DNA of 64,000 bases from Promethearchaeia archaeon (GTDB lineage: Archaea > Asgardarchaeota > Lokiarchaeia > Sigyniarchaeales > SOKP01), in the NCBI GenBank assembly GCA_029856125.1, contig JAHQWJ010000120.1, forward strand, positions 64,001-128,000, given 5' to 3'. Under the pieces are notes generated by a model that ran no database searches, had not been told where the DNA came from, and saw only the letters and a program-made list of their open reading frames with translations. Of the stretch, positions 41,629 to 64,000 are shown in pieces (position 1 is the first letter of the stretch; each line of letters begins with the position of its first letter). Made by a program: the position numbers and the translations under genes.

Positions 41629-42930
41629 CTACCGGCTTCGATTTTTAATAGAAAAATTGCGTTCCCTTTTTAAAATTAATACTTGACAACCGACGGCAAT
41701 TATTATTATTGACATCAATATTGCGAAGGGCATACCAGGTATAGCTCCACCATTTCCAGTTGAAAATTGAAGGATATAGTTTTGTATAAGATCACGATAA
41801 TAATAATCGTAAGCTCCAGAAAGTGACCCAGTAAAAGCTGCTACTAAGTTATATTCTGGAACAATAAAGATAACTTGTCCATATGCTCCAGATGCATGAT
41901 AACCCATGTGTATATCACCTCCAGTGTTAATCGAATCATTAGTATAAAACAAATAACCATAATTAAAATAGTTGGTTGGGGGTGAATAGACCCATCTTCC
42001 AGGAGTTTTAAACGATGTAGCTTCTCTTACCCAATCTGAAGGTATTAGTTGGGTTCCATTCCAATTACCCTCATTTAGGCATAATATTCCTAATTTTGCT
42101 TGTACTTGCGGTGAACATTCAAATCCATATCCTCCAAAGCTAACACCATTATTATCTTCCCACCAATTCCAATCTTCTTCTGTGATTCCCATATGGTCAA
42201 ACAAATGTTCCTGTGCAAAATCAGCTAAGCTTTGACCCGTTACGTTACTGATTATCCCTGATAAGAGATTAGGTCCATCATTACTATACGCAAAACCTCC
42301 AGATTCTCCAGGAGTAAACACCAATGGTAAATCGTCAAGAGGCCATTCAATACAATCAACATTTGCTGTAGAACTACCAGGATAAGCGTAATTAAATGAA
42401 CCAATAAATCCAGCATTCATAGTTAACAATTGCTCTATCGTTATATTCTTCTTTTGCTCACTATCGGTAAAACTAGGACTCCAAATATTAGCAAAGAATT
42501 CATAGAGCGTCTGACTTATATTACTTAAATATTCTTCTTCGATAGCAATCCCAATTAAAAGGGCTGTTAAGCTTTTAGTTACTGAATATTGAGCATGGAG
42601 GGTTGAACCTCCAAAATATGTCTTTGTATCTCGAATTTGTGAATCATATAGATATTTTTCTGTCAAAAGATACCCGTTGCGTACAATGATAACGCTCTGG
42701 ACATTTTGACTTCCTGTTTCTATATAATCAAACATACTGGAAATCGAATTGGAATCTAATCCTTGTTGTTCGGGACTTACCTCAGTCCATTCATATGTTG
42801 GCCAATAAACTTCTCCATTACTGCCTTGCACCAATATAGGTAGAAATGAAAATGAAAAAGCAATTGCTACTAAAGAGATTACGGTATACTTGAATAGAAA
42901 TCTTCTCATAATTGACACACAAAAGTTCAT
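41629..42930 (-). CDS. Secreted beta-lactamase-family serine hydrolase with C-terminal sorting/anchor tail
   Basis: Signal peptide, SVTK (SxxK), YSN, ASGAYGQ; ends IPGMP-TM-KRER. Confidence 0.88.
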   Translation of the reverse strand: MNFCVSIMRRFLFKYTVISLVAIAFSFSFLPILVQGSNGEVYWPTYEWTEVSPEQQGLDSNSISSMFDYIETGSQNVQSVIIVRNGYLLTEKYLYDSQIRDTKTYFGGSTLHAQYSVTKSLTALLIGIAIEEEYLSNISQTLYEFFANIWSPSFTDSEQKKNITIEQLLTMNAGFIGSFNYAYPGSSTANVDCIEWPLDDLPLVFTPGESGGFAYSNDGPNLLSGIISNVTGQSLADFAQEHLFDHMGITEEDWNWWEDNNGVSFGGYGFECSPQVQAKLGILCLNEGNWNGTQLIPSDWVREATSFKTPGRWVYSPPTNYFNYGYLFYTNDSINTGGDIHMGYHASGAYGQVIFIVPEYNLVAAFTGSLSGAYDYYYRDLIQNYILQFSTGNGGAIPGMPFAILMSIIIIAVGCQVLILKRERNFSIKNRSR

Positions 42931-43018: not shown

Positions 43019-44479
43019 TTAAAAAACAAAATCATGAGTATCTCTTAGTACTTCCTCGTTCACACACCAAATAAAATGCCCTTCTTCAACTTCTATCTTA
43101 TGAGGAGCATCCCGTGTGCACAATTCATTATATGACTCAGTGTAACACCTGGGATGAAAACTACAACCCGAAGGTGGCGCAATTGGACTTGGAACCTCAC
43201 CCGAAAGAACAAAAGTAATTTCTTGATCCTCTCCACTAACTTCAGATCGACTTGCTAGTAAGGCTTTTGTATAAGGGTGAGTAGGATTTGAGAATATCTG
43301 ATTTTTATTGCCTATTTCAACTATTTTACCAAGATACATTACGGCGATTCTATCTGCTATATGATGAACGACAGATAAATCATGTGTGATAAAAAGAAAA
43401 CCGTAGTTGTATGTTTTTTGTAAATCTCTTAGAAGATTAAGGATTTGAGCTTGAACAGATACATCAAGGGCGGATGTAGGTTCGTCTAATATAATTAGTT
43501 CTGGATTACAAGCTAGTGCTCTAGCAATGATTATTCTTTGTTTTTGTCCCCCTGAGAATTCGTGAGGATATCTATCCAAATGCTCCTTCTTTAGTGAAAC
43601 TTCCTCCAAAAGTTTTAATACGTGCCTTCTAAGTTTAATCCTATTAGTTATCCCTAGTATGTTCTTAAGTGGTTCTGCAATGATATCTACTACTTTTAAT
43701 TGAGGATTTAATGAAGCGTCCGGGTCTTGGAATACCATTTGAACACTTTTTCTTATTATACGCGAATAATCTTTTGGTAAGAGTTCTTCTTTTAATAATA
43801 ATTTACCTGATGTTTTCTCGATTAATCCTAAAATTGCCAAAGCTACTGTCGTTTTTCCACAACCGCTTTCTCCAACTAATCCAACAGTTTCACCTGCTTT
43901 TATACTAAAGGAAACACCATCTACTGCTTTAACAGCTCCTATTTGTCTTCTTAAAATGCCTTTAAGAAGAGGATAATGAACTTTTAAATCTTCAACATCT
44001 AATAGGGCTTGACCTTTTTCAAGAGCTTTCATTTCTTCTATATCATATTGAGGGATTGTTCTATATGAAAGCTTTTTAAGAATTATTGATGCAACGATGG
44101 AAATAGCCACAGCATATACCAGATGAACAAAAAAATAATAAAAAATACCTATGGGATCTATAAGAAAATTTATTGTAATGTAAATCAATCCCGGAAAAAT
44201 AGCTATTAAAGCAATATAGTTAGTTAACTCATAAACTAATTGGATTTTGCTCCCGTATTTTGTAGCAAATACGGTGAGTCCTATTATAATTAGAATACCT
44301 ATAATATATTGTGAAAAATAAATCCCTACTATTTCAGATAAACTAGAACTAGTTAGAAATAGGAATCCGTTTCCTAAGACGTTTAAACTAAGAATGATAA
44401 AAATTACCATCTCAATTAAAAAGGCAATTATAAAAGTTATTTTAATCCAAGGTTTAATTCTGATGTTTTTAAAAACCAT
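43019..44479 (-). CDS. oppF: OppF/DppF-type ABC ATPase with N-terminal ~4-TM domain
   Basis: [30 protein letters not shown]-terminal GCSFHPRC; first ~140 aa hydrophobic. Confidence 0.9.
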
Positions 44480-44503
44480 ACTTTATCACATTTCTATACT
44501 TCA

Positions 44504-46414
44504 TCATTTTTCTATAAGCTCTTTAAATTCGGGATCATATAGATGACAAGCCACAAAATAATCTGGGTTAACTTCTATATTTTTTGGTATTAATGAATCG
44601 CACACTTCAAATCTATAAGGGCATCGGGGATGGAATCGACAACCTGATGGAGGATATATTAAATTAGGAACCGTTCCACTGATGACTTCTAATTTTTCTT
44701 TCTCTTCTCTAACTTTTGGAATGGATTTCAGGAGAGCTTTAGTATATGGATGATATGGCGAACTGAATAGGGCTTTTCTTGTTCCATATTCCGCAATATA
44801 ACCACTATACATCACCGCGACTTTATCACTCACCTTTGAAATAATTCCTAAATCGTGTGTAATAAACAAAATTGAAGTTTCATATTTCCTCAATAAATCC
44901 TTCATAAGTTTTAGTATTTGGTTCTGAATAGTTACATCCAAAGCAGTTGTAGGTTCGTCTGCTATCAATAAACTCGGATTGCAAGCAAGAGCCATAGCGA
45001 TCTGGACTCTCTGTCTCATACCTCCACTTAATTCGTGAGGATAAAGGTCGTAAATGCTTTCAGCATTAGGAATATTTAAATCTCTTAACATGTTTATGGC
45101 CCAATCACGAGCAATTCCAAATATGCTCTTATTAGGATTTTTTAATGCTTCTAGGGTCAATTCTTCCTCCATATTCAGAAGATAAACTTCAGTTATCTGT
45201 TTTCCTATTTTAAAAACGGGATTTAAGGAAAGTAGAGGATCTTGAAAAATCATCGTTATCTCTTTTCCACGAAATTTTAACATTTCGTCCTCATTTTTTT
45301 TTAGTAAATCCTCTCCCTTGTAAAAAACCTGACCCGCTTCAATTACGCCAGGATCTCTAATGATTTGAAGAATTGATAATGCTGTGACTGTTTTTCCACA
45401 ACCAGTTTCCCCTACTAAACCTAGTACTTCACCTTTCTTTATTTCAAAAGATATTTTCTCTAAAGCTCTTACTACGCCTTCTTCCGTGTAGAAATAAGTT
45501 TTCAGATCTTCGACTTCCAAAACGATATCCTTCAACTTATCTATGCGATCTTCTTCCTTTTTTTTAATCGCCGTTTGAAGTTTATATTTGCTTATTTCCC
45601 CACTTTCAGGTAAATATTTATATTTTGCAAAATAAAAAAATGAAATAAGATAAATTCCAATGCTTATGATTATTTGGACCCGAATATCTAAGAATAAGCT
45701 GCCAAAATCGAAAAGATTACCTAAATATGCTGTAAAAAGAAAGATAAGTAAGGACCATAAAAAGTATGTAATAAAACCACTAACGGTAAATACTTTTTTT
45801 AACACAGATCTAACAATTCTAGTTTCTCTATTTCTCACTCTATTCAGAATATAAGTTAAAATAATGCAAAAAGATACGATTACAAATTGATTAATAAAAC
45901 TAAGATAGAAAATATCGTTAAAATTTTTTGGTGAAAGGAGTAGTGAAATGTAGGCAATATCAAGAGGTTCGATGAATAATGAGATGTTAAGTATGTCTAA
46001 TAGATCAATAGAAAAAAACAAGAAAGACAGAATTAAACATGAAATTACATATATTTTGGTCCATTTCTTAAACCAGTCGCTAATTTTTTGTTCTTTTCTT
46101 GATGCAAACGATATATATAATAGAGCAAATATAAGGACTTCTAAACCCCAAAGAACAGCATCTTTATACAATGCAGCAAAAACGATATGAAAACCTTCTA
46201 ATATTTGAAAGAGAATCTTAATCCCAAATATTATTCCAAAACAAATCAAAGAACTAAATCCTACACTTGTGCTAAAAGTTTTAACTTCAATTCTAGACTC
46301 TCTTGGAGTAAGTCTAAAAATAATATAAAAACTTACAATTAGTAGTACTAGTAGAAATAAACTTTCTAAAAAAGCCATTATCGGATTGAGAAAAACAATT
46401 ATCTGCAATATCAT
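44504..46414 (-). CDS. oppD: OppD/DppD-type ABC ATPase with N-terminal ~7-TM domain
   Basis: GETGCGKT, LSGGMRQR, ADEPTTALD, GCRFHPRC...VACH; first ~270 aa multi-TM. Confidence 0.9.
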   Translation of the reverse strand: MILQIIVFLNPIMAFLESLFLLVLLIVSFYIIFRLTPRESRIEVKTFSTSVGFSSLICFGIIFGIKILFQILEGFHIVFAALYKDAVLWGLEVLIFALLYISFASRKEQKISDWFKKWTKIYVISCLILSFLFFSIDLLDILNISLFIEPLDIAYISLLLSPKNFNDIFYLSFINQFVIVSFCIILTYILNRVRNRETRIVRSVLKKVFTVSGFITYFLWSLLIFLFTAYLGNLFDFGSLFLDIRVQIIISIGIYLISFFYFAKYKYLPESGEISKYKLQTAIKKKEEDRIDKLKDIVLEVEDLKTYFYTEEGVVRALEKISFEIKKGEVLGLVGETGCGKTVTALSILQIIRDPGVIEAGQVFYKGEDLLKKNEDEMLKFRGKEITMIFQDPLLSLNPVFKIGKQITEVYLLNMEEELTLEALKNPNKSIFGIARDWAINMLRDLNIPNAESIYDLYPHELSGGMRQRVQIAMALACNPSLLIADEPTTALDVTIQNQILKLMKDLLRKYETSILFITHDLGIISKVSDKVAVMYSGYIAEYGTRKALFSSPYHPYTKALLKSIPKVREEKEKLEVISGTVPNLIYPPSGCRFHPRCPYRFEVCDSLIPKNIEVNPDYFVACHLYDPEFKELIEK

Positions 46415-46431
46415 TTTTTATCCTTATCTTA

Positions 46432-47412
46432 TTATATTTTTAATCTAGGATCAATAGCATCTCTTAAGCCATCACCAATTAACAATGCTGCAATAGCAAA
46501 AAGCGCCGTGCTTAAACCGGGAATTAAAAAAGCAAAGAAATTATCTTCATAAATATTTCCCCAGTCAATATCTTGTCCCCAGTTTGGAATTTGTGAGGTG
46601 GTTAGGCCGAGAAATGCAATCGCGGCTATTCCCAACATGGTAATTGCCATCTGTCCAAAAAAGGTTAAAATCATAGGCGGCAAGGCGTTTGGAAGAATGT
46701 GTGAAAACATTACTTTGAATTTTAATGCTCCTCCAGTTTTTGCAGCCTTAACGTACAACATTTCTTTTATTTGCAAAACTAAAGATCTCATAAATCTTAA
46801 ATTGCCCGCAATTGCGAAGGCTCCATAGATTATTAAGATATCCATCATGTTCAAACCAAAAGTCTGCGTTAAAATTAAAACTATTACTAAAGTCGGTACT
46901 GAATATATTAGATCTACACCTCGCATAAAAACATAGTCTACTTTACCTCCAAAATATGCTGAGATAACTCCAAGTACTAATCCCCCAGCAACCGCAATTC
47001 CAGTAGGTATTACTGCCATAAATAATGAAGTTCGAGCGCCCCAAAGCATTCTTGCTAGAACATCATAGCCATTATTAGTAGTTCCTAATGGATGCGATAA
47101 ACTTGGAAGCTCATAAGGAACACCCGGAATCGATGGAGGTACTAGAGTTTGAAGAGAATATCTTGTTAACCATGGAGTAAATATGCCCATGAAAATAAAA
47201 CTTAAAATAATAAATGAACCGACTATTGTCAAATGAGTAAGTAAATGACGGAAGAACCTTCTTTTAGATCTTATTTTCTCAATTTCATACTCTTGTTCCG
47301 TGAATTCAGGAACTCTCCAACCAGGAAGTAGATAGAATTTAATTAATGATGTAAACTTTGGTTTATTTTGTTTTGTTGTATTCATAGCAATTTCTTCTTC
47401 TATTTTACTCAA
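46432..47412 (-). CDS. oppC: OppC/DppC-type ABC permease
   Basis: HPLGT...G.DVLAR..WGARTS, YVKAAKTGG, HILPN, GDGLRDAIDP. Confidence 0.92.
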   Translation of the reverse strand: MSKIEEEIAMNTTKQNKPKFTSLIKFYLLPGWRVPEFTEQEYEIEKIRSKRRFFRHLLTHLTIVGSFIILSFIFMGIFTPWLTRYSLQTLVPPSIPGVPYELPSLSHPLGTTNNGYDVLARMLWGARTSLFMAVIPTGIAVAGGLVLGVISAYFGGKVDYVFMRGVDLIYSVPTLVIVLILTQTFGLNMMDILIIYGAFAIAGNLRFMRSLVLQIKEMLYVKAAKTGGALKFKVMFSHILPNALPPMILTFFGQMAITMLGIAAIAFLGLTTSQIPNWGQDIDWGNIYEDNFFAFLIPGLSTALFAIAALLIGDGLRDAIDPRLKI

Positions 47413-47447
47413 AAATATTCACTCATGTTTTATTTTAAAGTTAATTT

Positions 47448-48674
47448 TCATGTATAGATAATCCTAGGATCAATGATAGTGTACAATACATCCGTAATCA
47501 AATTACTACTTAATAGGATTATTGTAGCAACCATTACACATCCATTTATTAATGGAATATTGCCGTTTATTATCGCAGAAAAGAAAATCCCACCAAAACC
47601 AGAATATCCATATATTATTTCAATAAATACTGATCCCAATAGAGAACTAGCAACTCCCCCTATAATAAGATTGCTTGTTGGAATTAATGCATTACGAAGT
47701 GCATGATTATTAATGATCTCTTTTTCACGAACTCCTTTAGCGCGAGCCGTTCTTATGTAATCCTGATCTAGCACTTCTAACATACTGGACCTTGTTAAAC
47801 GTGTAATACCCGCAAGACTTAGAAATGTCATCGAAATCGAAGGAAGCACTAAATGACCAATTGTATCCCAAAAATAGATAGGGTCATTGAATATAATACT
47901 ATCAAGAAGTCTAAACTTTGTCCCATATGTATTTATATAAATAATTATTGGTACAATTCCAATAATGCAAAGCAATGCTCCTGATAAAATTAAATACCAT
48001 CCTACTTGGTTCTTTTTCCTAAGTTTATTTCCGCGATAAATTAGGAGAACTCCTCCAATCATTAAAAAGAAAAACATCACCGCGACAAAGACACTACTTT
48101 GAGTTGGTATTATGTCTGGAAAAGACGGATTCAACGTAACACTATTAGAATTATAAATGTCAATATCAAATTCAAAAAAAGTTGCTTCATATATTATCCT
48201 ACCAAAGAAAAATTGGAGCATTATCGCGATCCAAAAACTAGGAAATCCCGCACCAACAACTGCTACAGATCTAATCAAAATATCTTTCCTCTTCTTCCTA
48301 TTTTTTGCAGATGTAGTCCCTAGTTTAACAGCAATAATAGGTGATATAATAATTGGAATAATCATTAACTCAAGCGTCCTTGGAAGAACTGTTATAATTA
48401 TGTCGTTAATCGACCAACCCTGGAATTGACCACTATAGGATTCCCCCCAATTACCTGTGAAAAAATCTCGAAGGTAATATGCATATTGAACATAAATTGG
48501 TTCATTTAAACCTAATCTTTCCATTTCATCGAAATAAATATTTATATCCCATCCAGTCATCATCGATTGTAAAGGATTAATAGCCATCGCATGCGATAAA
48601 AAAAAAGTGATTGTCAAGACAGCGATTAACATTGGAATCATAACGAGGATGCGTCTTACAATATATTTAAACAT
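47448..48674 (-). CDS. oppB: OppB/DppB-type ABC permease with extra TM hairpin
   Basis: G.WG.S, P.TLEL, RSSMLEVLDQDYIRTARAKG, HALRNA, IDPR; likely true start ATA 48695. Confidence 0.92.
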   Translation of the reverse strand: MFKYIVRRILVMIPMLIAVLTITFFLSHAMAINPLQSMMTGWDINIYFDEMERLGLNEPIYVQYAYYLRDFFTGNWGESYSGQFQGWSINDIIITVLPRTLELMIIPIIISPIIAVKLGTTSAKNRKKRKDILIRSVAVVGAGFPSFWIAIMLQFFFGRIIYEATFFEFDIDIYNSNSVTLNPSFPDIIPTQSSVFVAVMFFFLMIGGVLLIYRGNKLRKKNQVGWYLILSGALLCIIGIVPIIIYINTYGTKFRLLDSIIFNDPIYFWDTIGHLVLPSISMTFLSLAGITRLTRSSMLEVLDQDYIRTARAKGVREKEIINNHALRNALIPTSNLIIGGVASSLLGSVFIEIIYGYSGFGGIFFSAIINGNIPLINGCVMVATIILLSSNLITDVLYTIIDPRIIYT

Positions 48675-48709
48675 GTTAATAGATTTTTTAGCTATTTTAA
48701 TTCACCTCG

Positions 48710-49231
48710 TTAAATTTCACGTCGAGCTTTAACATATCTTTTCAAAAACATACCAGAAAGAGCTCCACTTATATTTATTCCAAATAAAATTAATAAATTG
48801 ATATACCCCTGGAAAGAAGCAAACTGAAGAATGAGTGGTTCAAAAGAAAATCCAAACATAATTAAATAAAAAAGGAAACCTTCAAAAACAATAAAAGGAA
48901 CTAACCATAAAGATGCCCTAATTCCATAATGCGCAATATCTTCTTTATAGGTTAACCAAAAGCAAATCGAATATAATAACAAACAATCAACGAAATACCA
49001 GCCTGAATAAACTGAGCTAATAAATAAAAATTCATAGGTCCAGAAAATTATCGATTTAACAGAGCTGGGTATATCTTCAAAGGAAAACCATTTCTCTCCT
49101 TCATCAAACATAAATATATTAACTATTATTCCAAAGTATGCAAGAAAAACAATGATATATGCAAAAGTAACTCTTCCTTGACGACCCCAATCTATTTTCC
49201 AACTTCCTTTATCCTTACTATTAACTGGCAT
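48710..49231 (-). CDS. Conserved 4-TM membrane protein leading the ABC operon (orfX)
   Basis: Four hydrophobic segments; a homologous C-terminus occurs at the same position in the second cluster (63860..64000). Confidence 0.8.
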   Translation of the reverse strand: MPVNSKDKGSWKIDWGRQGRVTFAYIIVFLAYFGIIVNIFMFDEGEKWFSFEDIPSSVKSIIFWTYEFLFISSVYSGWYFVDCLLLYSICFWLTYKEDIAHYGIRASLWLVPFIVFEGFLFYLIMFGFSFEPLILQFASFQGYINLLILFGINISGALSGMFLKRYVKARREI

Positions 49232-49323
49232 GTCGAGTTATCTATATTAAAAATCTTTCAACTTTAGCGTTATAGATAAAAAATTAATTTTGTATTTAAC
49301 AATTATGACTTATTATGTTCTTT

Positions 49324-49337
49324 TTTACATATGTAAT
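49324..49337. promoter_or_regulatory. Palindromic operator candidate TTTAC-ATAT-GTAAT
   Basis: Centred between the divergent ABC operon and the binding-protein gene, with TATA-like boxes 22-25 nt away on either side. Confidence 0.6.
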
Positions 49338-49439
49338 TTTTTAAATTCTGTTTGATAGATTTAAATAGTTATAGGTGTAAGTACATGAATATATCATAAA
49401 ATCTAATAAAAACTAAATAATAAAAAAAAGGAAAATAAA

Positions 49440-59556: not shown

Positions 59557-61419
59557 TTAATTTAGGGTTGTATCTTCTTTTTGAACTTTTTTAATAGAAA
59601 TCTCAGCTTTATCTTGATGAGCTGGATCGTAAAGGTAACAAGCTACATAATAATTTGGTTCAACTTCTATGCTTTTTGGTTGCTCTGAATCGCAAGGTTC
59701 AAAACAATATTTACATCGAGGGTGGAATCTGCATCCTGCTGGGGGATAGATTAAATTGGGAACTAGCCCTGAGATAATGTCAAGTCGGTGCCTTTTTTTG
59801 CCCACTACCGGTACGGAACTTATAAGTCCCTTTGTATAGGGATGATAAGGCTTCGAAAATAGCTTTTGAATTTTACCATATTCAACGATAAATCCACTAT
59901 ACATAACAGCAACACGGTCACACATTTTTGAAATAATACCTAAATCGTGAGTGATAAATAGAATTGAAGTATTGTATTTTTTTTTCAGATCTTTCATCAG
60001 TTTTAGAATTTGATTTTGAACCGTAACATCTAATGCGGTAGTGGGTTCATCTGCTATTAGGAGTTTAGGACTGCAAGCTAATCCCATTGCAATTTGAATT
60101 CTCTGTCGCATTCCACCGCTTAATTCATGAGGATATCTATCAATAATTTGCTCTGGAGCTGGAATATTTAATTCTCTTAAAAGATTTTCGCTCCAATCTC
60201 TAGCTATACTATATATACTTTTTTCTGGCTGATTAATGGTTTCCATTAGTAATTCTTTTTCCATATGAAGAAGATATACTTCAGCAATCTGATCTCCTAC
60301 TTTAAAAACGGGATTAATAGAATTAAGAGGATCTTGAAAAATCATAGTAATCTCTTTTCCTCGGTATTCAAGTATTTTTTCGGATTCCTGCAGTAGGTCT
60401 TTGCCTTTAAAGAAAACTTCTCCTTTCATGATTTTTCCAGGTGGACGAACTAATTGAAGAATTGATAAAGCAGTAACAGATTTTCCACAACCAGTTTCAC
60501 CAACAAGACCTACTACCTCTCCTTCAAGGATTTTAAAAGAAACCCCCTCTACAGCACGAACAATTCCTTCTTCCGTATAAAAATAGGTAGTGAGATTTTT
60601 CACATTTAAAATTACTTTTTCGCCTTCTAGAGATTCAGAATTGGCCGTCCTATCTATATCTATTCCTTCCTGAATCTTCAACTTGCTTTTTTCATGCGCT
60701 TTAGGTAAAAATACCTTTTTTGTGAATAGATAAAAAACTAAAACATAAACACCACTAACCACACCAATTAAGATCCGAATATCTTGTTCATATGGCCAAA
60801 TCCCAAGTAATCTGGATAAATACATCTCAAAAATAATGAGTTGAATCGTCCACACTCCTAAAGAAGCAGCACTTCCAATTATTTGACTATTTCTAAGTAC
60901 CTCCTTTGGAAGTCTGATGTCAATCGAGAGAGTTCTATTTAGTATTGAAGTGAGAGCTCCAAGGATAAATACCATTATTATAGCCCAAATTAATCCTAAA
61001 TGTAATAAATCAGCTCCCCTTAAATCAAAATCTTGTATCTCAATCCCTAATAATCCAAAAGATGTATATACTACAGCCGCAATCCAAGTTATAATTAAAA
61101 TTATCACTAACAATTTTTTAAAGAGCTTAGTCTCGCCTTTTCTCCCAAATATATGATGGAATAGGAAAAAGGCTGTTGTCATTATAGCAAAATGTAATGG
61201 TTGGTTATTTAAAATTACAAAAAATTCAAAATAATATCCTAAATTTTCAAATGGTAAGCGTATTCCTAATGATATACCAAGAACTATAAGAATGCTTATA
61301 AGATTACTTTTAAGGCTAACTTCTTTTGGAATTTGATGCTCTTCAGGAAGCCAGTTATTTAATCGATTAATTATTAAAAATAATAATAAAGCTGCTATTA
61401 TAGCTTCAATTAAAGCCAT
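59557..61419 (-). CDS. oppD: OppD/DppD-type ABC ATPase with N-terminal ~7-TM domain
   Basis: GETGCGKS, LSGGMRQR, ADEPTTALD, GCRFHPRC; likely true start ATA 61452. Confidence 0.9.
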   Translation of the reverse strand: MALIEAIIAALLLFLIINRLNNWLPEEHQIPKEVSLKSNLISILIVLGISLGIRLPFENLGYYFEFFVILNNQPLHFAIMTTAFFLFHHIFGRKGETKLFKKLLVIILIITWIAAVVYTSFGLLGIEIQDFDLRGADLLHLGLIWAIIMVFILGALTSILNRTLSIDIRLPKEVLRNSQIIGSAASLGVWTIQLIIFEMYLSRLLGIWPYEQDIRILIGVVSGVYVLVFYLFTKKVFLPKAHEKSKLKIQEGIDIDRTANSESLEGEKVILNVKNLTTYFYTEEGIVRAVEGVSFKILEGEVVGLVGETGCGKSVTALSILQLVRPPGKIMKGEVFFKGKDLLQESEKILEYRGKEITMIFQDPLNSINPVFKVGDQIAEVYLLHMEKELLMETINQPEKSIYSIARDWSENLLRELNIPAPEQIIDRYPHELSGGMRQRIQIAMGLACSPKLLIADEPTTALDVTVQNQILKLMKDLKKKYNTSILFITHDLGIISKMCDRVAVMYSGFIVEYGKIQKLFSKPYHPYTKGLISSVPVVGKKRHRLDIISGLVPNLIYPPAGCRFHPRCKYCFEPCDSEQPKSIEVEPNYYVACYLYDPAHQDKAEISIKKVQKEDTTLN

Positions 61420-61496
61420 AACTATATTTGGTTGGTAAAATTGTAGTAGTATACTAAATCATCTCCGAATTTTCCTTCTCAACTTTTTATAAACCT

Positions 61497-62489
61497 TTAT
61501 ATATGTAAGCGTGGATCTAAAGCATCCCTCATTCCATCACCCAACAACATAAAACCTATGGTAGCAATACCTATGAAAAATCCTGGCCAGACTGCTGCCA
61601 TAAACGCAGTAAATTGTTCTTGAGCCCAATTTATATCTGTTCCCCAATTAGCTACAGTCTGGTCAACTAGCCCAAGCCACGCTAAGCTTGCTATTCCTAG
61701 TATCGTTCGTGCCATCCCCCCAAAAAAGCGAATTATCATTGGGGAGAGCGCATTTGGTACGATATGTTTAAACATTACTTTAAATTTTTTTGCTCCACCA
61801 GTCTTAGCTGCCTTTACGTACACCATTTGTTTTACTTGGAGTACAGTTGATCTCATAAATCGGGTATAAAAGGGTATAAATAATAATCCATACAATGTAA
61901 GTGTAGTGAATAAATCAGTACCTAACATAGGGGCAATGACAATCACAAGAATCATCATTGGAAAAACAAACATTAAATCCACTACACGCATAATTATACT
62001 ATCAACTAAACCTCCAAAATAGGCAGAAATTGTACCAAAAACAAGACCTCCCACTTGAGCTATTATTACAGGGACTAAAGCCATTGAGAGGGTCGTCCTA
62101 GCACCCCAAATTATTCTCGCGAGAATATCGTATCCATAAAAAGTTGTCCCTAATGGATGTTCTGGAGATGGTGGTTCGAAAGGAAGTATTCCTGAAGGAT
62201 AATAGGGTAATGTAACTTCCTGTAACGGAATTTTTGTTAGCCAGGGTGCAAATACTCCAAGCACGACACAAAATAAAACCATTATAATTCCTATTATTGT
62301 TAAGGGTGTTAGAAATCGTCGAAATAGCCTCCTTTTTGATTTTATTTTTTCAATTTCATATTCTTGGGCTGTAATATCGGGATCTCGCCATCCAGGAATA
62401 AGTAGGAATTTTAGATATTTTTTGATCATTGCTTTACGGTTTAGCTTAACCTCTATATCTTTTATTTCAATCTCTTTTACATGTATCAT
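61497..62489 (-). CDS. oppC: OppC/DppC-type ABC permease
   Basis: HPLGT..GYDILAR..WGART, YVKAAKTGG, HIVPN, GDGMRDALDP. Confidence 0.92.
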   Translation of the reverse strand: MIHVKEIEIKDIEVKLNRKAMIKKYLKFLLIPGWRDPDITAQEYEIEKIKSKRRLFRRFLTPLTIIGIIMVLFCVVLGVFAPWLTKIPLQEVTLPYYPSGILPFEPPSPEHPLGTTFYGYDILARIIWGARTTLSMALVPVIIAQVGGLVFGTISAYFGGLVDSIIMRVVDLMFVFPMMILVIVIAPMLGTDLFTTLTLYGLLFIPFYTRFMRSTVLQVKQMVYVKAAKTGGAKKFKVMFKHIVPNALSPMIIRFFGGMARTILGIASLAWLGLVDQTVANWGTDINWAQEQFTAFMAAVWPGFFIGIATIGFMLLGDGMRDALDPRLHI

Positions 62490-62511
62490 AATAATCCCAT
62501 TATTTTATTGC

Positions 62512-63807
62512 TTAATTATAAGTAACTCTTGGATCTATAATTGTATACATAACATCTGTAAGGAGCGTACCAACAAGTATTATTATAGTTGAAAATACTA
62601 ATATCCCTTGTATCACAAAATAGTCTCCCATGAATACTGAACGAACCATATAATACCCTAGACCTGTGTAGTTAAAACTAATCTCTATAAAAAGCGATCC
62701 AAGTAGAGCAGCAGTTGTGTTTCCTATGATGAGAGTACTAGTTGGTAATAAAGAATTTCGAAGAGCGTGCTTGTTCAGGACTGTTTTTTCTTCAACACCT
62801 TTAGCACGAGCCGTTCGAATATAGTCTTGATCAATAACATCTAACATACTTGAACGCGTTTGTCTAGTAATTGGAGCCAAGGATACAAATACCATGCATA
62901 TAACTGGGATAAATAGATGATTTATTGTATCCCATAAATGATGTTGATCATTATATAATATAGCATCAATTATTCTAAATCCCGTACCGTATGAAAACGT
63001 ATATAAAAAAGAAGTTAAGATTATAAGTAGAACTAAGCAAATTGCTATTAATGATCCCCCCCAAATTAAATATTTAGTCCGCTTAGACTTATTTTCTTTC
63101 TCCATAAGTGGCATAACTTTCCTTTTTAATGAAACAGCTCCTTTATATACTAGAACAATACCAATGATCAGAAATAACAACATGGCTAAATAACTCAGCG
63201 TGAATAATGGGGGCGGCGGAACGATAGCTGCTGATGTATAACCCAAATACTCTGGTGCATTTGAGTACATAAGTGGCAGATTAATATCTTCAAAAGTAAG
63301 AATTCTTAGATTGAAGAAAAGCATTTGTAATAGCTTTGCTATAAAAAATACTGGGAAACCTGCTCCAAGAATCGCAACAAAACGTATAAAAATGTCTTTA
63401 TTTTTATTTTTATGCTTTGCGGATGTAACTCCAAGCTTGACAGCAATAATAGGTGCTATTATTATGGGGAGTAACACTAATTCGATTGTTTTAGGCCAAA
63501 CCTTGACAATCATGTCCAATACAGGAGTTCCTGGCATAGCTACATAAGAAACACCCCAATCGCCTGAGAAGAAATTTACCAAATATTTCCAAAGTTTAAT
63601 ATGTACTGGGTCTGTAAACCCCAATCTATCCAACTCTCTTTGGAGTGTAACCTCATCCATTCCAATATTTAATAAACTCATACTAGGGTCTGCCATCATC
63701 ATTTGAGATAACAAAAAAGTGACGATTAAAACAGCTAAAAGCATAGGAAACATAAATAAAATTCGTTTTATGATATATTTTATCATATTAGTTTGTTTTC
63801 GAGCCAT
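62512..63807 (-). CDS. oppB: OppB/DppB-type ABC permease with extra TM hairpin
   Basis: GDWGVS, PKTIEL, RSSMLDVIDQDYIRTARAKG, HALRNS, IDPR. Confidence 0.92.
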   Translation of the reverse strand: MARKQTNMIKYIIKRILFMFPMLLAVLIVTFLLSQMMMADPSMSLLNIGMDEVTLQRELDRLGFTDPVHIKLWKYLVNFFSGDWGVSYVAMPGTPVLDMIVKVWPKTIELVLLPIIIAPIIAVKLGVTSAKHKNKNKDIFIRFVAILGAGFPVFFIAKLLQMLFFNLRILTFEDINLPLMYSNAPEYLGYTSAAIVPPPPLFTLSYLAMLLFLIIGIVLVYKGAVSLKRKVMPLMEKENKSKRTKYLIWGGSLIAICLVLLIILTSFLYTFSYGTGFRIIDAILYNDQHHLWDTINHLFIPVICMVFVSLAPITRQTRSSMLDVIDQDYIRTARAKGVEEKTVLNKHALRNSLLPTSTLIIGNTTAALLGSLFIEISFNYTGLGYYMVRSVFMGDYFVIQGILVFSTIIILVGTLLTDVMYTIIDPRVTYN

Positions 63808-63859
63808 TTTTCCATCCTTTCTATAGTTGCTTTTCTTAAACTAATTAATCCTATTAAAT

Positions 63860-64000
63860 CTAGTTTTTTCTTCTACTTAGCAATTGTTTTACTTTCATAC
63901 CACTAAAGGAACCAGTCATACTAATCAAAAACAAAATTAGAATATTTAAATACCCCTCTCCTCTACCAAATTGCAACACAAAAGGTTCGAGTGAAAGACC
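63860..64000 (-). CDS. C-terminal part of an orfX paralog (membrane protein; truncated by window)
   Basis: Manual translation GLSLEPFVLQFGRGEGYLNILILFLISMTGSFSGMKVKQLLSRRKN* aligns with the C-terminus of 48710..49231. Confidence 0.85.
   Translation of the reverse strand, partial: GLSLEPFVLQFGRGEGYLNILILFLISMTGSFSGMKVKQLLSRRKN

Follow-up and report, generated by a model that had tools for sequence, protein, structure and literature searches.

Type I ATP-binding cassette (ABC) importers are usually drawn with soluble ATPases beneath a two-subunit permease. The locus described here raises the question of why, in a member of the Lokiarchaeia, both ATPases of an Opp/Dpp-type importer carry membrane helices of their own; integral-membrane ATPases and an extra subunit would change the options for assembly and regulation. 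The window, by which we mean the whole stretch of 64,000 nucleotides that was analysed (C126:64001-128000, from a 3.69-Mb genome), contains two such operons, each with the gene order orfX-oppB-oppC-oppD-oppF on the minus strand and a divergent oppA on the plus strand. An earlier sequence-only reading had described them as paralogous, and every open reading frame that it assigned to them was found. Elsewhere the same genome has a third full copy (C27), a fourth that is truncated by the end of its contig (C54), and, on C42, a sister operon whose ATPases are unfused. Homologous sequences carry the label Promethearchaeota, meaning Lokiarchaeia.

The ATPases and their N-terminal fusions

Each of the four ATPases is encoded by one uninterrupted frame, 486-636 amino acids (aa) long. 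OppF1 (43019-44479, minus strand; 486 aa) has four predicted transmembrane (TM) helices, comprising one leftover helix and a 3-TM core (about 44060-44479), which are in frame with an intact OppF ATPase (about 43019-44011). OppD1 (44504-46414, minus strand; 636 aa) has a 7-TM domain made of two related helical repeats (about 45605-46414), again in frame with an intact OppD ATPase (about 44504-45529). In the second operon, OppF2 (57787-59511, minus strand; 574 aa) joins a mobile 4-TM module (about 59110-59481) and the 3-TM core (about 58777-59106), seven helices together, to an intact OppF ATPase, and OppD2 (59557-61419, minus strand; 620 aa) joins a 7-TM domain (about 60700-61419) to an intact OppD ATPase. 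As the earlier reading had held, the motifs are complete in all four: Walker A, Q-loop, signature, Walker B/D-loop, H-switch, and the four C-terminal cysteines are present, and Pfam assigns both ABC_tran and oligo_HPY to each protein. The spacing of the cysteines resembles that of the [4Fe-4S] ligands in DppD and DppF of E. coli (PMC12136057).

The locus also encodes two BPD_transp_1 permeases with coupling (EAA) helices and a binding protein matching SBP_bac_5 above the cutoff (E 4.6e-16), whose gene is divergent at nearly all loci. Judged by its sequence, the system is a PepT-family (Opp/Dpp-type, TC 3.A.1.5) type I ABC importer. Three familiar architectures were compared with it. The canonical five-subunit Opp/Dpp arrangement failed, the ATPases carrying 4-7 TM helices with alternating topology instead of being peripheral. 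A permease-ATPase fusion of the OppC-OppD type found no BPD_transp_1 match in 63 D and 36 F domains (E 0.1), and separate B and C genes exist. By sequence, a type IV exporter-fold half-transporter was also set aside; the ABC_membrane profile had no match and separate OppB/C are present.

The long frames might be assembly chimeras or read-through artefacts, or the ATPases might be translated from internal starts, and a methionine does lie in the linker of both F1 and F2. Such a methionine, however, occurs in only 6 of 33 OppF proteins and at no shared offset. The identical 636-aa OppD1 was recovered on 19 public contigs (ENA, Logan, and JGI assemblies), its membrane domain is matched by 31 further 90%-clusters, and the same layout recurs in the closed 4.36-Mb genome of Candidatus (Ca.) Harpocratesius repetitus FW102, where there is one operon of each kind, fused and unfused. 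Searching 1.84 billion proteins with a D-domain profile yielded 64, and all of the full-length ones are fused to OppD. Among the matches listed from 301 Asgard genomes, OppD sequences of at least 62% identity occupy frames of 631-1069 aa except where the end of a contig truncates them; for those of at most 57% identity the frames measure about 325-420 aa, a single stop-interrupted case aside. An artefact of any of these kinds is scarcely credible, and the proposal of an importer enlarged through real, conserved in-frame fusions, with no chimeric assembly, has held up. On the evidence of the sequences, this is a real, lineage-wide PepT variant in which both ATPases are predicted to be integral to the membrane. 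We found no paper describing a layout in which both ATPases have their own membrane domains, and a keyword search of the Asgard transporter survey that lists PepT systems (PMC7997004) returned no mention of it.

The D-domain profile matched 45 of 161 Lokiarchaeia genomes, or about 43-44 once two weak stop-containing matches are removed and Harpocratesius, which it missed, is added; the carriers belong to three families of one order. In trees of the ATPase part only (midpoint root, LG+G4; loci chosen by search, not as a random sample), fused OppD forms one group (99/93), as does fused OppF (100/98). Both groups are nested in an order-level clade with otherwise unfused members, which already have orfX, and other Asgard Opp fall outside it. 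In 34 loci D and F each carry the fusion and in 24 neither does; the sole exception is a contig truncation. The simplest interpretation is that the fusions arose once, in a single ancestral operon. Several fused genes also occur on short contigs in a bin of another Asgard class (G264; L037, L038), nested among Lokiarchaeia sequences; these copies may be contamination or transfer.

The added membrane domains

Between the two operons the N-terminal domains share 28% identity over 275 aa in OppD (E 4e-20) and 31% over 93 aa in OppF (E 3e-10); this homology had previously been proposed from short motifs, which do occur in the translations. The D and F domains have no detectable relationship to each other. 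Sequence and structure searches with them returned no Pfam family, no solved fold, and no described fused permease family, the last being the check that the earlier reading had called for.

Alignment-averaged hydropathy and Lys/Arg bias predict seven helices in OppD with the N-terminus outside and the C-terminus inside, seven in the same sense in OppF2, and four in OrfX with both ends inside. The Lys/Arg counts per loop alternate cleanly, both in OppD (0.1/4.4/0.6/4.2/0.9/5.2/2.2/8.0) and in OppF (0.7/4.2/0.1/2.7/1.0/3.2/0.4/5.0), with the ATPase on the inner side; the topology is unchanged when four helices are added to OppF. AlphaFold2 models agree with it and are confident 7-helix bundles (predicted local distance difference test scores, pLDDT, of 95.0 and 92.8); both of these membrane domains are modelled with confidence, and neither has a recognised fold. 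The OppD domain is an internal repeat in which helices 1-3 match helices 5-7 (hhalign probability 95%; reversed control 1%), and in the model its last helix, about 50 residues long (H214-264), runs straight toward the ATPase. The linkers measure 26-43 aa in D and 19-32 aa in F.

The OppF domain consists of a constant 3-helix core and an optional 4-helix module, and from 2 to 11 helices are predicted in different proteins, mostly 3 or 7. The module also exists as a free-standing gene of 137-149 aa that is unlinked to transporters, and it sits inserted in some long OppD proteins; those of 970-1060 aa with 13-15 predicted helices are built of repeated D units plus the 4-TM module (L017:6079-9021, L033:7688-10603, L034:7599-10688, L035:234-3410). 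No residue is invariant in either the D or the F domain alignment. The ratio of nonsynonymous to synonymous substitution rates (dN/dS) is 0.19-0.67 in the TM parts versus 0.06-0.25 in the ATPases; selection on the TM parts is purifying but relaxed. Two examples of the free 4-TM gene (L031:1139-1588, in G000:C93, and L090:5001-5414) are strongly conserved in Promethearchaeota and homologous to the OppF2 module. As an identity for the module, Yip1 was rejected, with a best score of 21.4 bits against a cutoff of 28.6 and a weak match in 3 of 24 members; distant kinship is possible.

This plasticity bears on a near-neutral account, according to which small membrane genes were fused and became locked in, their sole role being to keep the ATPase at the membrane. 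A free gene to supply the optional module, the frequent gain and loss of helices, and relaxed selection are all in keeping with it. We nevertheless think it improbable: all 34 complete fused loci, which come from two families, retain both fusions and show no reversion, the dN/dS values are under 1, and the 7-helix fold has been conserved.

Membrane-type segments also occur outside the fused groups. A hydrophobic hairpin precedes Walker A in OppF of Ca. Heimdallarchaeum (L074:6942-8147) and of a genome of the same family (L076:6949-8172), there being no permease genes adjacent to the former in L074. In OppF of the "unfused" sister operon, the stretch from Walker A to the Q-loop holds inserts that vary between proteins, and some of these contain two hydrophobic helices (L056:5026-6792, L062:13223-14641, L029:5512-6843). 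Going by these sequences, Heimdallarchaeum and the sister operon each acquired membrane-type segments in OppF separately. In one unfused OppD of 821 aa (L061:12503-14968, G030), the ATPase is interrupted by an insert of some 400 aa.

Proposed anchoring and related systems

The transport core is ordinary. OppC1 (46432-47412, minus strand; 326 aa) is a BPD_transp_1 permease with a coupling helix, and OppB1 (47448-48674, minus strand; 408 aa) has an intact coupling helix and an optional 2-TM hairpin insert (about 47934-48095); their counterparts are OppC2 (61497-62489, minus strand; 330 aa) and OppB2 (62512-63807, minus strand; 431 aa), the latter with an optional 2-TM insert at about 62995-63204. 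Lengths and helix counts of OppB/OppC are equal in fused and unfused operons and the coupling helices are intact; because the normal helix counts are kept, the added helices do not appear to replace permease parts.

By homology with E. coli DppABCDF, OppA would capture cargo outside, OppB and OppC would form the path, and OppD and OppF would drive transport via the usual coupling helices. Sequence, topology, and trees indicate that in one Lokiarchaeia lineage OppD gained a 7-helix domain and OppF a 3-helix core at the N-terminus. These additions would most likely serve as accessory anchors, inserted in the membrane but not part of the transport path, and the ATPase would lie on the cytoplasmic side. 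They would pack on the permease rim, the OppD domain against OppB, where they could hold or tune the ATPases and offer a docking surface, like TMD0 in TAP. We lean slightly toward such an anchoring or scaffolding role, which is the best supported of the functions put forward from the sequence alone (tethering or regulating the ATPases, scaffolding, or handling amphipathic cargo). We count for it the freely varying helix number, the lack of an invariant residue, and the relaxed TM dN/dS; and because unrelated helices were gained repeatedly, anchoring fits better than specific chemistry.

Complex prediction with OppB2, OppC2, and the TM domain of OppD2, run with three controls, gave an interface score (ipSAE) of 0.35 versus 0.00 for the best control, and the signal was lost with OppB replaced. 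The runs agree in at least 78% of contacts, and partner pLDDT is at least 63. In calibration, 58 of 80 solved pairs and 2 of 110 mismatched pairs attained the mark, but those attaining it with scores of 0.60 or lower were just seven solved pairs and both mismatches. The models give weak support to docking of the OppD domain on OppB, which agrees in direction with the DppB-DppD pairing (PMC12136057). Several points weigh against anchoring as the function. The complex score is of a kind that the tool itself calls more often wrong than right. OppD keeps seven helices across two families, though one or two suffice for a plain tether, and polar residues close to the outer face are conserved in it (D137, Q193, E198, D213, R215). 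Between paralogs, moreover, the TM domains are about as divergent as the binding proteins (28-42% and 32-38% identity, respectively), which fits a role in specificity too.

Among the closest known systems, the E. coli PepT importers DppABCDF and OppABCDF (TC 3.A.1.5; PDB 8Z1V, 8Z21; PMC12136057) share the family-5 binding protein, two 6-TM permeases, coupling helices, four-Cys [4Fe-4S] tails, and gene order. Their DppD and DppF, however, are peripheral proteins of about 330 aa, whereas those described here have 3-7 or more TM helices; in addition, a 4-TM OrfX heads the operon here, and OppA is divergent, 690-820 aa long, and C-terminally anchored. The long ATPases of Mycobacterium tuberculosis DppABCD and OppABCD are tandem ATPase fusions, not membrane-domain fusions. 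These two systems (PDB 8WD9, 8J5Q) give the best PDB sequence matches of the ATPase part (E 2e-99) and indicate that PepT ATPases tolerate fusion.

A membrane domain followed by an ATPase in one chain is also the plan of type IV TMD-NBD (transmembrane domain, nucleotide-binding domain) half-transporters, which have the exporter fold, the importers IrtAB and YbtPQ included. Unlike them, the proteins described here have OppD/F-type ATPases, OppB/C supply the path, and there is no ABC_membrane match. The TMD0 of TAP1/TAP2 and TAPL (PMC3437018, PMC6199259) resembles the added domains in being an extra N-terminal membrane domain on each half, outside the core path, that acts as a docking hub. The likeness is a functional analogy only; TMD0 stands before the core membrane domain in a protein with the exporter fold, while here the domain sits on the separate ATPase of a type I importer, and the matches listed include no homolog or fold match to TMD0 of TAP, TAPL, or ABCC. 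The fused operons would nonetheless offer an Asgard parallel to eukaryotic TMD0 hubs. Nearest in both ATPase trees is the unfused Lokiarchaeia sister operon (oppA-Y-orfX-B-C-D-F; C42 and the second Harpocratesius operon), for which we found no description. It shares orfX and Y, but it is without N-terminal TM domains and is flanked by housekeeping genes; fused and unfused sister operons in the same genome provide a natural control.

Putative accessory subunits, possible cargo, and neighbouring genes

OrfX1 (48710-49231, minus strand; 173 aa) is a conserved 4-TM protein of no family with both termini predicted inside. Of orfX2, the 3' part lies in the window (63860-64000, minus strand), and the full gene (63860-64396; 178 aa) runs past the window end. 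In the family to which the window belongs, 52 of 68 genomes have OrfX, as do five of seven in the next family; no copy turned up in the remaining Asgard genomes that were searched. Paralogs are 50-59% identical, with a dN/dS of 0.15 and 15 invariant columns. Since OrfX heads both operon types and is conserved, it looks older than the fusions, and it would be a separate membrane subunit, going by gene order and conservation. Compared with ECF S-component-like domains, OrfX had no PDB profile match, and its Atlas model (pLDDT 0.64) shows TM-scores of just 0.41-0.50 to the membrane domains of DUF3792, CbiM, and DUF4118. Beyond the OppB/C core, the extra helices number about 17 in operon 1 and about 20 in operon 2, in line with the 15-20 first estimated. 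Both OrfX and the OppB insert had been included in that enlargement, and both are present; OrfX, however, is not specific to the fused form, and the insert is optional and absent from most fused operons, OppB having six predicted helices in 26 of 33 fused-clade loci.

The soluble protein Y (53786-54799, minus strand; 337 aa) recurs beside such operons, near 8 of 26 fused and 9 of 12 unfused loci, and also beside an Odinarchaeum opp operon. Its homologs measure 280-350 aa and share 15 invariant columns; searches found no known family and no PDB match. Gene order makes it a candidate accessory. The Odinarchaeum operon ends with a 5-TM gene and the Y homolog (L078:1863-3427, L073:7659-9125), and the 5-TM gene has no match to the OrfX profile.

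With OrfX and Y as possible partners, the added domains might instead be sensors or regulators gating ATP turnover on membrane state or on a partner. Some lipid transporters are regulated by a neighbouring helix. The long helix H214-264 could couple movement to the ATPase; the strong conservation of OrfX and the presence of TetR genes at 7 of 26 loci also agree. Known sensor domains gave no match, however, and the linkers vary in length, and we regard the idea as quite doubtful.

OppA1 (49440-51716, plus strand; 758 aa) is a family-5 solute-binding protein with a signal helix and a Loki-CTERM anchor; oppA2 (64605-66779, plus strand) lies outside the window. OppA paralogs are 32-38% identical, and the best match of these large proteins (690-820 aa) to any solved binding protein has an E of 4e-4. 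Neighbours in the window include a carboxylesterase, three acyl-CoA ligase-family genes, a GDSL hydrolase, and a beta-lactamase-fold hydrolase, from which a lipid or lipopeptide substrate had been suggested. Acyl or ester genes lie beside 18 of 26 fused loci, 0 of 12 unfused sister loci, and 32 of 138 (23%) background windows of 18 kb. These counts are non-independent, the unfused set being mostly one inherited locus, and because the loci are kin and the reference genes were drawn from them, the enrichment is overstated. Other fused loci are flanked by GH32, GH94, sulfatases, glycyl-radical enzymes, and AOR; support for the suggestion is contextual. The flanking acyl genes give a moderate hint at lipid-like cargo, and acyl or ester compounds are our leading, if tentative, guess for the window. 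The cargo is probably small organics that vary between paralogs; varied catabolic cargo is likely, and peptides are also possible. The operons may offer a clue to the route by which Lokiarchaeia import what their numerous acyl-CoA and glycyl-radical enzymes act on.

A more direct part in transport would have the added domains and OrfX bind fatty acids, esters, or amphipaths within the membrane and pass them sideways to OppB/C or to acyl-CoA ligases. The acyl-gene counts, the size and remoteness of OppA, the TM divergence that tracks OppA divergence, and the faint likeness of the OrfX model to DUF3792, CbiM, and DUF4118 all lend it something. Against it stand the lack of invariant residues, the free helix number, an OppF with often only three helices, the sugar- and radical-enzyme neighbours of other loci, and the overstated enrichment; we consider it unlikely. 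A bolder version, which we hold to be unlikely, envisages up to seven components (OppA, B, C, TM-OppD, TM-OppF, OrfX, and Y) in which the domains borne by the ATPases, whose fold may be an undescribed one, create a second site within the membrane where lipid-like cargo is received or acyl-CoA ligases dock. If true, a peptide-importer scaffold would have become a lipid-uptake machine for fatty-acid breakdown in Lokiarchaeia.

Some smaller features were seen in passing. In-frame ATA starts are suggested a few codons before ATG, upstream of oppB1 (48675-48710) and oppD2 (61420-61460). An acyl-CoA ligase-family protein (51802-53613, minus strand) and its copy at about 71147-72955 (L032:14148-15956), one near each operon, have a short extra N-terminal domain that by eye resembles an AbrB-type DNA-binding hairpin. 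An Rce1-like (CAAX) membrane protease gene (54818-55879, minus strand) adjoins Y at several loci, and a beta-lactamase-fold protein (41629-42930, minus strand) has a tail resembling the Loki-CTERM of OppA.

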